Source: Escherichia phage ECO4
DNA length: 64,000 nt
Sequence record: NC_054911.1
Direction: 5' to 3' (one strand)
Positions within the stretch are counted from its first letter, which is position 1. Every line of letters begins with the position of its first letter. Both the position numbers and the translations under genes were made by a program. Below the pieces are notes generated by a model. It saw nothing but the letters and a program-made list of their open reading frames with translations. It had not been told where the DNA came from and searched no databases. Positions 52,415 to 56,774 of this stretch are shown here, in pieces.

Positions 52415-53419
52415 TTAGCTCACCAACTCAATCCAAGCCGGACGAAGTACATCTTGTACCATTTTAACTAATTCCTTTTTAATCAAAGAAGGATTATCTG
52501 CTTGAGTTAGAGTAATACCTTCACGAGAAGTTTCTTCCAAAATATCTTGGACAGTTAGCCCCATCACCTTTCCAAAATCCTTTGGACCAATTTCGCCAAT
52601 TTTAGAAATAACGTTATTTACTCGGTTCAGTGTAACGTAACAAGCTAAAATTCCCACCAATTTGTTATCAGCTTCTGACAATTCAACTTTAGCTTTAATA
52701 GGCTTATCAGACTTTTTCTTTTCACTAAATTTAGAATTCTTGCATTTGATGGCTACACGATTGCGATTAGGCAGCCAAGAAGGCTAACAAGGTTTCAATA
52801 CATATCCTTCAGCGGTAAATACTTCGCCTTTGGCTTCGGCATTCCAAACGCATTTATTTGCATCAACTAATCCAGCATGGTCTACTGTAAAATTATAATC
52901 TTGGACGACAGAATCTAAATCATTTGGCAATTTAATAAGCTCTTCAAATTTACCGCGACCTAAAAGTGGAGCCATTTTAAATTTAAATGTATTGCAGAAT
53001 GATTCCATCATATAATCATCGACATAAGTCACGTCACCACTTTCTGTAGTGACAATAATGTCAAATACATAAAAATCTTTATCACCATAATCAACATTCT
53101 TCTGAATGCCAGGTCCAGCGAATTCGCCAAAAACTTGATAAGTCACAACAGCTGAAGTTTCCATAATATCTTGTACTGCTTTAATGGAATCAGCGTAATT
53201 CTTTAGAATAATTTCATACCCAAAGAAATCTTCAGCAGGAAGAATCGGTCCAGTACGTTTAGCGCAAGTTACTTTATCACGCTCAATAATCAATGAGAAA
53301 TTTGTGCCGTGAATCTTTTCACGAGCTACCCATTCGCCGCCAGTCAATCCCAAGCTATAAAGTTTTTCAATAAATTTAGAGTTGTAATGATTTTCAAGAC
53401 TGCTATACTTTTTAAACAT
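52415..53419 (-). pseudogene. rnlB: RNA ligase 2 (Rnl2) reading frame interrupted by a single in-frame amber codon (TAG at 52784-52786)
   Basis: N-terminal 211 codons with ligase motif I (KIHGTN), then TAG, then 122 in-frame codons; total 334 equals T4 Rnl2 length. Confidence 0.7.
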
Positions 53420-53909: not shown

Positions 53910-53977
53910 GTTATCGAGTTGGTGCCATTATATACATCATTTTCTGATTGTGTTTTGTGTGCTTTCAAAATGAAGAA

Positions 53978-53993
53978 AGGGGCCGAAGCCCCT
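53978..53993 (-). terminator. intrinsic terminator hairpin (AGGGGC-CGAA-GCCCCT) downstream of hoc
   Basis: Same hairpin sequence as 13872-13887; T-rich tail on the minus strand. Confidence 0.5.
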
Positions 53994-53998
53994 TTCGA

Positions 53999-55417
53999 TT
54001 ATGGATAAGTATAGATGATACCAGTTTCTAAAGCAGTTTTATGGATGATGTATCCATTACGTGATTCTTGAACATCAACTTCTGGATAATCTTTCATCAT
54101 CTTCTGAAGCGTATAACGATGCAAGTAGTACTTACTATCTGGATCTTCAGTTTTCCAATCTTTACCTTCTTCAGTCATTTTTTGGATTTCATCCATAACC
54201 CACCAACCGCACCAGATATAAGCTGAAGTACGATGTGGAAGAGGATGAACATAAGGCAATTCACCTTCTGGTTCCGGAGCAACTTTATCAGTTACCTGAA
54301 CTTGACCTGTTGTTTTAACTGTTTTGCTATCATAGTCAGTTGCTGTAACGACAGCAGTAACTTCAATAGTTTGACTTCCAACAGATGAGGTATCAACAGT
54401 ATATACGTTAGTTGACCCTTCTACAGGAGAAGAATCTTTCTTCCATGAGTAAGTAATTTGTGCTTCTTCTGGAGCATCCGTAACATTAGCAGTAAATGTA
54501 GCCGAAGCATCTTGCTGAACGTTAATAGAAGGAGGAGTCAATGTAACCTGTGGATTCATTGTCTTCTTATTAACTGTCAATGATACTTCATTAGAAGTAA
54601 CTTCCTTTTCATTGTAATTTTCTGCTGTTACTTGGGCTACGCATTTAATTCTTTTTACTCCACTTGTAGTTGGAGTATAGCTAAATGTAGAGCTAGTTTC
54701 TCCACCAACTTGTGAATCATCTACATACCACTGATACGTAGCAGATGCTCCATCAGGTTGAGAAGCTAAGGCAGCAGTAAATTGAACTGGGGTTCCAATT
54801 ACTCCAGCTGAAGGACTAGCAGGAGTTACTGCCAATGTAGTTGTCTGTGTCTTTTTATTAACAGTCAGTGATACTTCATTAGAAGTAACGGTTTTTTCAT
54901 CATAATTTGTCGCGGTTACTTGAGCTACACACTTGATTTTTTTAACTCCGCTTGCGGCAGGAGTGTAATTGAATGTAGCAGAAGTCGCTTCGTCTACAGG
55001 AGAACTGTCAACGTACCATTGATACGTAGCAGATGCACCTGATGGCTGCGAAGCTAAAGCAGCGGTAAATTTAACAGCTGTTCCAATTACTCCTGCTGGA
55101 GGACTATTGGGAGTTACGGCTAAGGTAGTCGTCTGAGTTTTGTTTTTGACTGTGATAGTTGTAGTAGCTTCTGCTGTTTCAGCTTCAGATTCTGGAACTG
55201 TATTTGTTGCAACAACTTTAATAGTCTTTTGACCAGCAGGACCTTTTAATACATAATCAAAAGTTGCTTCAGACCCATCTTGTGGAGCATTATCTACACT
55301 CCAAGCATAAGTAATAGTTCCACCTCCAGTTTCACCACTAGGTGCAGCAGTAAACTGCTTGGTTTCATCAATAACTCCTGACGGTGTTTTAGGAGTTATA
55401 TCAACTGTAAAAGCCAT
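53999..55417 (-). CDS. hoc: Hoc outer capsid decoration protein with four Ig-like domains and a C-terminal capsid-binding domain
   Basis: 472 aa; repeated Ig-like modules; C-terminal YVHPLPHRTSAYIWCGWWVMDEIQ region; position before inh. Confidence 0.85.
   Translation of the reverse strand: MAFTVDITPKTPSGVIDETKQFTAAPSGETGGGTITYAWSVDNAPQDGSEATFDYVLKGPAGQKTIKVVATNTVPESEAETAEATTTITVKNKTQTTTLAVTPNSPPAGVIGTAVKFTAALASQPSGASATYQWYVDSSPVDEATSATFNYTPAASGVKKIKCVAQVTATNYDEKTVTSNEVSLTVNKKTQTTTLAVTPASPSAGVIGTPVQFTAALASQPDGASATYQWYVDDSQVGGETSSTFSYTPTTSGVKRIKCVAQVTAENYNEKEVTSNEVSLTVNKKTMNPQVTLTPPSINVQQDASATFTANVTDAPEEAQITYSWKKDSSPVEGSTNVYTVDTSSVGSQTIEVTAVVTATDYDSKTVKTTGQVQVTDKVAPEPEGELPYVHPLPHRTSAYIWCGWWVMDEIQKMTEEGKDWKTEDPDSKYYLHRYTLQKMMKDYPEVDVQESRNGYIIHKTALETGIIYTYP
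54569..55144 (-). repeat. tandem direct duplication of about 288 bp inside hoc (two adjacent Ig-like domain units)
   Basis: Protein units NKKTQTTTLAVTP...VTSNEVSLTV occur twice back to back; DNA units diverged but alignable. Confidence 0.7.
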
Positions 55418-55426
55418 AAGTTATCC

Positions 55427-56107
55427 TTATTTTAATGTTACGAAAGAAGAATTGCGTGTTTCACGAATTAAAACTGATCCGTCGCGATTAATGTAATAAA
55501 TTAAGCTAAACAAAGTTTGGTGTGCTGACGCGTGTTCAAAACTAGTTGGGTGAGATTTCCAATCCGGAGTTTCAGCAATCCACTGGTAAATCCACCAAGG
55601 AACGGTACAGAATCCTGGATTTTTTCCAATCAACTGAAGATTCGGACTAAAGTTTTCCGGAAGAGTAAATACAGACGGCTTTTCAGATTCAATAATCTCA
55701 GCTACAGCCTGTTCGAATTTTTCTTCAACAAAAGGAGTATCTTCAATTAAAACAGTAGTATTTTCAGGAATTTTATCCGTTTCTACTACTTCAATTTTAA
55801 TGTCAGATTTAACCGGAGAATCAATCAGAAGTGCTGCCTCTGGATTGACTTCTTCATCGTCATATTTTAATCCGTCTGCGGCATCAGCAGCATCAATTAA
55901 GTCTTTAATAGATAACCCATCAGTCTCTGGCATAGGTTCACTAGCGAGCTTCTGGAGAGCTTCTTCAATATCATTAACGATATTATCAAAAGATTTATTC
56001 TTTTTGACCTTTATACCAAACTGTTCAGCGTATTCAGCTAATTTAGCTTTAGCTTCTTTATTATCATCAAGAGCCTTCAGCTCTGCAATATAATCTTTAT
56101 CTATCAT
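55427..56107 (-). CDS. inh: Inh inhibitor of prohead protease
   Basis: 226 aa; position after hoc. Confidence 0.8.
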   Translation of the reverse strand: MIDKDYIAELKALDDNKEAKAKLAEYAEQFGIKVKKNKSFDNIVNDIEEALQKLASEPMPETDGLSIKDLIDAADAADGLKYDDEEVNPEAALLIDSPVKSDIKIEVVETDKIPENTTVLIEDTPFVEEKFEQAVAEIIESEKPSVFTLPENFSPNLQLIGKNPGFCTVPWWIYQWIAETPDWKSHPTSFEHASAHQTLFSLIYYINRDGSVLIRETRNSSFVTLK

Positions 56108-56120
56108 AATATTTCCTCAG

Positions 56121-56128
56121 TATAAATA
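56121..56128 (+). promoter_or_regulatory. T4-type late promoter TATAAATA (segE)
   Basis: Exact TATAAATA 29 nt before the segE ATG. Confidence 0.55.
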
Positions 56129-56156
56129 TAGATATATTTATTACTCGGAAAATAGT

Positions 56157-56774
56157 ATGTACCACTTTGTATATGAAACAACAAATCTAATAAATGGTAA
56201 AAAGTATATAGGAAAACACTCTACTGATGACTTGAATGATGGTTACCTTGGTTCCGGTAAGGCAATTCAGCAGGCTATAAAGAAATATGGTGAAAACAAT
56301 TTCTCTAGAACAATACTAAAAGAGTTTAAAACTTCCGAAGAAGCGTACATGTATGAAGAAGAAATTATAACTCCTGAAATAATAAAAAGCAAAAATTATT
56401 ATAATATGAAACCTGGTGGAATTGGTGGAATTGTTATGACTACAGAGGTTATAGCAAAGATGAAAGAATCTTCCGCTAAGAGATTTGAAAACTCACCGGG
56501 CACGGTATTAGGTACAACTTGTTACACTAATGGAACTAAAAATATTTTTATTAAACCTGGAGAACTTGTTCCAGAAGGATTTGTAAAAGGGATGGTTCAT
56601 CCTAATAGAAAGTCCAGAAAAGGATGTAAAGTCAAACCAACTACCACAGGAACTTTTTGGGTCAATAATGGTGCAATAAATAAATTAATACAACCAGACG
56701 GTATTATTCCCGACGGATTTATTAAAGGTCGTCTCATGAAAAGAGATTCTAAAGGCAAATTTAGTAAGGCATAA
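56157..56774 (+). CDS. segE: GIY-YIG homing endonuclease
   Basis: 205 aa; N-terminal GIY-YIG-type motif (YHFVYETTNLINGKKYIGKHS); position between inh and uvsW. Confidence 0.75.
   Translation: MYHFVYETTNLINGKKYIGKHSTDDLNDGYLGSGKAIQQAIKKYGENNFSRTILKEFKTSEEAYMYEEEIITPEIIKSKNYYNMKPGGIGGIVMTTEVIAKMKESSAKRFENSPGTVLGTTCYTNGTKNIFIKPGELVPEGFVKGMVHPNRKSRKGCKVKPTTTGTFWVNNGAINKLIQPDGIIPDGFIKGRLMKRDSKGKFSKA

Follow-up and report, generated by a model that had tools for sequence, protein, structure and literature searches.

The open reading frame at positions 53999–55417 (minus strand) of the analyzed sequence, a 64,000-nt stretch of Escherichia phage ECO4 (NC_054911.1; hereafter, the window), is hoc, the gene for the highly immunogenic outer capsid protein. 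It begins with ATG, ends with a TAA stop codon, and encodes a five-domain form of 472 aa. The product matched T4 Hoc (PDB ID: 5vf3, chain Z) with an E-value of 7e-219 and PHROG 1149 ("Hoc-like head decoration") at 1e-138, and PHROG 21694 matched its C-terminal domain (aa 377–472). Comparison of the window ORFs with the annotated T4 and BECP11 loci placed the gene at the conserved late head-gene position inh–hoc–24.3–24.2–rnlB–gene 24, with inh (55427–56107) upstream, then the homologues of 24.3 and 24.2, rnlB, and gene 24, in the same order as in T4 and BECP11. The section of the window from 40000 to 64000 was 98.1% identical to phage AR1. In T4-type phages, a single Hoc molecule is known to occupy the middle of every gp23 hexamer of the mature head; Hoc is a standard example of a mucus-binding phage capsid protein and a major platform for T4 vaccine and vector display.

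The gene is flanked by putative expression signals. Directly 3′ of the stop codon lies a terminator-like hairpin (53967–53996, minus strand) with a 9-bp GC-rich stem, a TTCG loop, and a T-rich tail, and at the matching site by its hoc match, phage NBG2 has an annotated "terminator." A Shine–Dalgarno-like AAGGA (55424–55428, minus strand), whose function is presumed, is located 6 nt 5′ of the hoc ATG and overlaps the inh stop codon. A search of the hoc strand between 53000 and 57500 yielded no exact T4 late-promoter motif (TATAAATA); only a 7-of-8 match (AATAAATA) was present, at 56135–56142 upstream of inh, which we do not claim as a promoter.

Two observations concern the neighboring genes. 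The rnlB gene for RNA ligase 2 (52415–53419, minus strand) contains an in-frame amber codon at codon 212 (52784–52786), with TAG in place of the TAT (Tyr) of T4 and BECP11; it differed from BECP11 rnlB by 19 mismatches over 1005 nt and no indels. Barring suppression of this codon or a sequencing error, translation would stop after 211 aa. Between inh and uvsW, as in T4, the window encodes a GIY-YIG homing endonuclease of 205 aa (56157–56774, plus strand; PHROG 314) that is absent from the otherwise very similar BECP11, and an exact copy of the T4 late-promoter motif is found just upstream of this ORF (56121–56128, plus strand).

Repeat units and domain architecture of Hoc

Tandem Repeats Finder detected a single array in hoc (54560–55135; period 288, 2.0 copies, 77% matches, score 684), and an ungapped repeat search aligned 54560–54847 with 54848–55135 at 76% identity. 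Set in the register of the protein domains, repeat unit 1 corresponds to aa 93–188 (54854–55141, minus strand) and repeat unit 2 to aa 189–284 (54566–54853, minus strand); we refer to these D2-type Ig-like domains as type A (D2a) and type B (D2b), respectively. The two units were identical at 217 of 288 nucleotides (75%) and 78 of 96 amino acids (81%), and the nucleotide value was far above chance, as 2000 shuffles of the units gave 26% ± 2.5% with a maximum of 38%. These results confirmed the proposal of an earlier note on this DNA that a tandem repeat of about 288 bp encodes two paralogous Ig-like units. The coordinates given there (54569–54856 and 54857–55144) correspond to this repeat with the register offset by a few bases, the choice of register being arbitrary for a tandem array.

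Alignment with T4 Hoc (376 aa) paired residues 1–103 of the window protein with T4 1–103 and residues 189–472 with T4 93–376, both stretches being near-identical, demonstrating that the extra length corresponds to exactly one 96-aa unit. The length difference given in the earlier note (472 aa against about 376 aa) was therefore correct by both ORF length and alignment; the hoc CDS in a T4 record is 1131 nt. The unit that is extra relative to T4 was the first one: unit 1 was 77.4% identical at the nucleotide level to the single D2 of T4 (dS 0.96) and has no T4 counterpart, whereas unit 2 was 91.7% identical (dS 0.19) and is the orthologue of T4 Hoc domain 2. The units are adjacent, in frame, and of equal length, and each coincided with one domain of the AF2 model, which is the arrangement of an intragenic tandem domain duplication.

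On the basis of these alignments and the structural model, Hoc is predicted to consist of domain 1 (D1), D2a, D2b, D3, and a C-terminal capsid-binding domain. D1 (aa 1–92; 55142–55417, minus strand) aligned with T4 Hoc 1–92 and was modeled as a beta-sandwich with a pLDDT of approximately 79–92. D3, named after domain 3 in T4 numbering (aa 285–376; 54290–54565, minus strand), aligned with T4 189–280 and gave sub-threshold Pfam matches to Ig_3 and I-set at aa 289–356. The C-terminal domain (aa 377–472; 54002–54289, minus strand) is near-identical to T4 Hoc 281–376. The window protein accordingly contains four Ig-like domains compared with three in T4, in agreement with the extra Ig-like domain that had been proposed for it. 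An equal number of domains in T4, which would have spoken against that proposal, is thereby excluded.

The AF2 model (mean pLDDT 83.8) showed four beta-sandwiches at aa 1–92, 93–188, 189–284, and 285–376, with block pLDDT values of approximately 79–96, although the model drew on a shallow alignment of 29 close sequences and had low confidence in the C-terminal domain. Both repeat units were well modeled (pLDDT 89–95 for unit 1 and 93–96 for unit 2) and exhibited an identical strand pattern. Pfam detected a PKD domain above threshold (aa 197–267) and Ig_3, Ig_2, and I-set below threshold. The best Foldseek matches were strings of four or five Ig domains, such as those of Sidekick, Dscam, and ICAM (E-value 1e-13), and neither RB49 nor T4 Hoc was among the top 50 matches against the PDB; because longer eukaryotic Ig strings outscore phage Hoc, this result supports the fold class only. 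Pfam, AF2, and Foldseek thus each pointed to an N-terminal string of Ig-like domains of the PKD/I-set type.

The C-terminal domain was homologous to T4 Hoc ~281–376 and retained the residues that contact gp23. Residues H299 and R300 of T4 Hoc and D336 of gp23 have been described as capsid contacts (PMC10385173). The corresponding H395 and R396 did not vary in the 29 homologues compared, and D336 is retained in the gp23 of the window. Through this conserved domain, Hoc would presumably still bind the center of the gp23 hexamer.

Divergence, distribution, and mosaicism of the units

Differences between units 1 and 2 were concentrated at third codon positions (14, 12, and 45 at positions 1, 2, and 3, respectively), and the Nei–Gojobori method gave dN 0.13, dN/dS 0.10, and dS 1.35, the last lying in a range (near 1.3) that is close to saturation. 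In comparison, dS between the window and T4 was 0.31–0.42 for the orthologous D1, D3, and C-terminal domain. Every unit was under purifying selection, with dN/dS between 0.07 and 0.30. Moreover, the two copies were only 75% identical to each other but 92–94% identical to their positional orthologues in T4, BECP11, and IMG contigs, which is not the pattern of a recent or lineage-specific origin.

Nucleotide clustering, limited to 18 units from nine genomes (the window, T4, BECP11, slur08, ESh36, moskry, and three IMG/VR contigs), grouped the units by their position in the array and not by genome. All first units formed one clade, which also contained the sole unit of one contig (IMG_L007), and second units grouped with the single units of T4 and another contig (IMG_L005). 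Similarly, unit 3 of slur08 paired with unit 2 of ESh36 (95%) and unit 4 of slur08 with unit 3 of ESh36 (99%). The same positional pattern emerged when 171 units from 122 Hoc sequences were clustered at the protein level. The 82 single-unit Hocs, namely 80 cluster representatives of 376 aa, one of 379 aa, and T4, comprised 44 of type A, 32 of type B, 3 of type C, and 3 in a separate small cluster. Forty proteins (39 cluster representatives and that of the window) contained multiple units, all of the D2 type; the 55 within-protein unit pairs among them were 56–85% identical, and none of the 40 arrays included near-identical units, such that no recent duplication was sampled.

Next, we assessed the frequency of the different forms. 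Hoc lengths of 376, 472, 568, and 664 aa correspond to one to four D2-type units, and the best 120 protein clusters comprised lengths of 376 aa (80), 472 aa (29), and 567–570 aa (9); the Hocs of ESh36 and slur08 are 568 and 664 aa, respectively. Megablast with the hoc gene matched 685 phage records, many of them with an uninterrupted match of 1419 nt; the best match was vB_EcoM-UFV09 (98.2% over all 1419 nt), and identity was 97.3% for Sf23 and BECP11. Because whole-gene coverage joins both pieces of a one-unit gene to 100%, length forms were distinguished by the span in the record: among 60 records sampled evenly, 15 spanned approximately 1419 nt and 33 approximately 1131 nt. Using tblastn with one unit (E-value ≤ 1e-25, each unit counted as a separate place), we identified 878 D2-type units in 612 phage records (mean 1.43), and an even sample of 60 records included 33 with one unit, 24 with two, one with three, and two with four. 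The five-domain form therefore represents roughly a third of Tequatrovirus-type hoc genes, and the three-Ig Hoc of T4 is not typical of its genus.

These data indicated that the D2 doubling is ancient and predates the divergence of these hoc genes, as dS between the copies far exceeds the 0.3–0.4 that separates the window from T4 and the units are orthologous by position. Together with its presence in about a third of the relatives, this argues against the reading implied by the earlier note, in which the duplication was a change particular to this phage. Reduction to the 376-aa forms is no less probable than expansion to the 472-aa form. For the window itself, the consequences are small, since its allele is a frequent natural one and the protein is well studied.

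The description of the repeat as a recombination hotspot is too strong for this genome. At 75% nucleotide identity and with a longest identical run of 21 nt, the two copies are poorly suited to homologous recombination with each other. Over evolutionary time, gain, loss, and mosaicism of units have clearly taken place. Relative to BECP11, the repeat units (54566–55141) were 94.4% identical compared with 98.6–100% for D1, D3, and the C-terminal domain, and thirds of units differed in their nearest neighbors; the higher divergence of the units than of their flanks, combined with this mosaic pattern, suggests that recombination has shaped the repeat region over time. The region looks like a recombination patch within the repeats relative to BECP11. 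The first third of unit 1 was only 89% identical between the window and BECP11. Assignment of thirds of units to type A, B, or C from the protein sequence was too noisy in the first third to locate deletion junctions and was taken as evidence of mosaicism only, and the heavy mosaicism found by segment typing blurs any tree of units. Phage moskry (MN850651.1, 637–2055), which is classified as Mosigvirus, encodes a 472-aa Hoc of the Tequatrovirus type whose array consists of A and B units, which suggests that hoc has been exchanged between genera.

Explanations for the number of units

We consider it highly probable (roughly 85%) that the window encodes a D1–D2a–D2b–D3–C-terminal Hoc in which the D2 doubling is ancient, both copies have been kept, and the array is common and variable among relatives. 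According to this account, a 96-aa D2 module would have been duplicated in tandem and in frame long ago, giving rise to D2a and D2b, and both copies would then have been retained under purifying selection, with differences mainly in loops. The module would constitute a copy-number-variable array of one to four units in Tequatrovirus hoc, in which the unit types A, B, B′, and C are orthologous by position between phages, the window having A–B and T4 only B. Present differences in copy number would reflect loss and gain of whole units and mosaic recombination of diverged units or alleles, and not new duplication.

The adjacency, shared frame, equal length, and clear paralogy of the units would also be expected from a recent tandem duplication specific to this lineage, the fresh adaptive gain that the first reading had implied. 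We regard this as very improbable, because the copies have diverged at 25% of nucleotides with a synonymous divergence several times that between the window and T4, each is closer to units in other phages (94% for BECP11 and 92% for T4) than to its neighbor, and the two-unit form occurs in many independently sequenced genomes. Hypermutation of one copy could reconcile a recent event with this divergence, but the predominance of synonymous differences speaks against it. Wrong expansion of the repeat during assembly or annotation is more improbable still: tandem repeats can be mis-assembled, but with 71 differences in 288 positions between these units, reads place uniquely, the reading frame is intact, and the same 1419-nt gene form is present in dozens of independent phage genomes and metagenomic contigs. 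An origin of the two-unit form by unequal, short-homology recombination between diverged A-type and B-type single-unit hoc genes, with the single-unit state ancestral, was also considered. Both A-only (44 of 82, including IMG_L007) and B-only Hocs (32 of 82, including T4 and IMG_L005) exist, units are mosaic, and hoc moves between genomes, as in moskry, a Mosigvirus with the Tequatrovirus-type gene. However, the array began with type A in 39 of the 40 multi-unit proteins, no B–A array was seen among them, and the three- and four-unit arrays share the order A–(B)–B′–C, which is more easily explained by one array followed by losses of units; we therefore consider this origin unlikely.

A separate question is whether the number of units matters to the phage. 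Unit number might be selectively neutral and drift by recombination, as Hoc is non-essential; T4 Hoc is dispensable in laboratory growth, and one to four units coexist among very similar phages of the same hosts. On the other hand, every unit is under purifying selection, the arrays remain in frame, and Hoc is kept across T4-like phages, in addition to the published link between its Ig domains and mucus adherence. Together, these points argue that the domains matter, but this does not extend to their number, and neutrality of the number is a real possibility, if a somewhat doubtful one. Tentatively, and with rather low confidence, we also envisage an ancient position-orthologous array of one to four units in which copy number is maintained by selection, T4 has been secondarily reduced to a B-only form, and paralogue-specific loop residues (unit positions 48, 51, and 52) give first and second units different ligand preferences. 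If this were true, selection could tune fiber length, avidity, or glycan specificity to mucosal environments.

To return to the ancient, retained, and variable array, its most likely consequences for the window phage would be a fiber longer by one Ig domain and, for each of the 155 fibers, an additional potential binding module. Scaled from the 180 Å of the four-domain T4 protein, the fiber may be longer by roughly 45 Å. The architecture and the properties of other Hocs suggest that one more glycan-binding module, with a second copy of an S-L-T motif, would be displayed. The number of Ig-like domains sets both the reach of the fiber and the number of potential glycan-binding modules, and the natural series of one to four units represents ready material for testing domain number against mucus adherence.

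Binding residues and comparison with known Hoc proteins

In the BAM model, the Ig-like domains of Hoc attach to mucin glycans (fucose). Residues reported to bind ligands in other Hocs were found in several domains. D1 carries E29 and G33, which have been reported as MUC2-binding residues in D1 of phage PNJ-6 Hoc. The S-L-T motif, reported as a MUC2 contact in D2 of phage PNJ-9 Hoc, occurs twice (S183-L184-T185 and S279-L280-T281). In D3, D342 is the equivalent of T4 D246 and was invariant among homologues. Published binding residues thus vary, being located in D1 in PNJ-6, D2 in PNJ-9, and D3 in evolved T4, and because they differ between phages, a functional gain from the second D2 is speculative. 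Variation from unit to unit was concentrated in loops, and three unit positions (48, 51, and 52) distinguished first units (P/E/A) from second units (Q/G/E) in a nearly fixed manner. In view of the mucin-binding literature, an adaptive role for domain number is plausible.

We found no explicit description of the 472-aa T-even Hoc in the literature searched, only general statements on domain number and the cases of PMBT63, PNJ-9, and Muldoon; likewise, that literature yielded no paper on the one-to-four-unit series in T-even phages or on the orthology of its units by position. The paper on PP01 contains no Hoc data, and that on the evolution of the T4 virion describes only the gp23/gp24 duplication. 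In sequence records, the 472-aa relatives are annotated as "Hoc-like head decoration," "PKD domain protein," or "highly immunogenic outer capsid protein," and the GenBank record of moskry annotates a repeat_region over the tandem units of its 472-aa hoc.

More distant Hocs also vary in length. Mosigvirus-like Hocs on the IMG/VR contigs L008–L014 (hoc from position 1501), which start with "MAYTV..." and end with "...GIIYDYVY," were 282, 377, or 471–472 aa long; a D3-type unit is present twice in the 471–472-aa forms, and D2 is missing from the 282-aa form. The doubling of a D3-type unit in this distant lineage indicates that a change in domain number has also occurred independently with a different module. 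On another contig (IMGVR_UViG_2706796453_000001, from position 1501), the reading frame through the Hoc match is 1039 aa, much longer than in the other Hocs retrieved; it ends, as they do, with "...ALEIGIIY" but lacks the usual N-terminus "MKTPNDWAGTKT" at its start. It could be a many-domain form like that of Muldoon, or its start could have been called too far upstream.

Among known systems, the 472-aa Hocs of other Tequatrovirus phages, such as UFV09, ECP52, Sf23, BECP11, G28, and PP01, share the architecture, length, and orthologous unit types of the window protein and differ by point substitutions only, which are concentrated in the two repeat units. T4 Hoc resembles it in gene position, D1, the B-type D2, D3, and the C-terminal domain, including the H299/R300 pair, but lacks the type A unit (aa 93–188 of the window protein), resulting in three Ig-like domains. 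The 568- and 664-aa Hocs of ESh36, UGKSEcP1/2, slur08, slur03, and Sfk20 have the same D1, D3, and C-terminal domain and begin their arrays with A and B units, but contain one or two more D2-type units (B′ and C), giving six or seven domains in total. Beyond these, the Hocs of PMBT63, PNJ-9, and Muldoon likewise combine a conserved capsid-binding domain with a variable string of Ig-like domains, although they belong to other lineages and use other modules. The Hoc-like protein of Klebsiella phage PMBT63 is 468 aa long with four Ig-like domains, one more than T4 (PMC13435897), and shares only 46% identity with T4 Hoc; that of PNJ-9 consists of three domains and lacks D3 (PMC11853027); and the Hoc-like protein of Serratia phage Muldoon has 10 Ig-like domains. 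The PMBT63 study states that Hoc domain number varies widely (PMC13435897). Variation in the number of Hoc Ig domains is already known and published, and the four-Ig Hoc of the window is an old, widespread, and ordinary instance of it.
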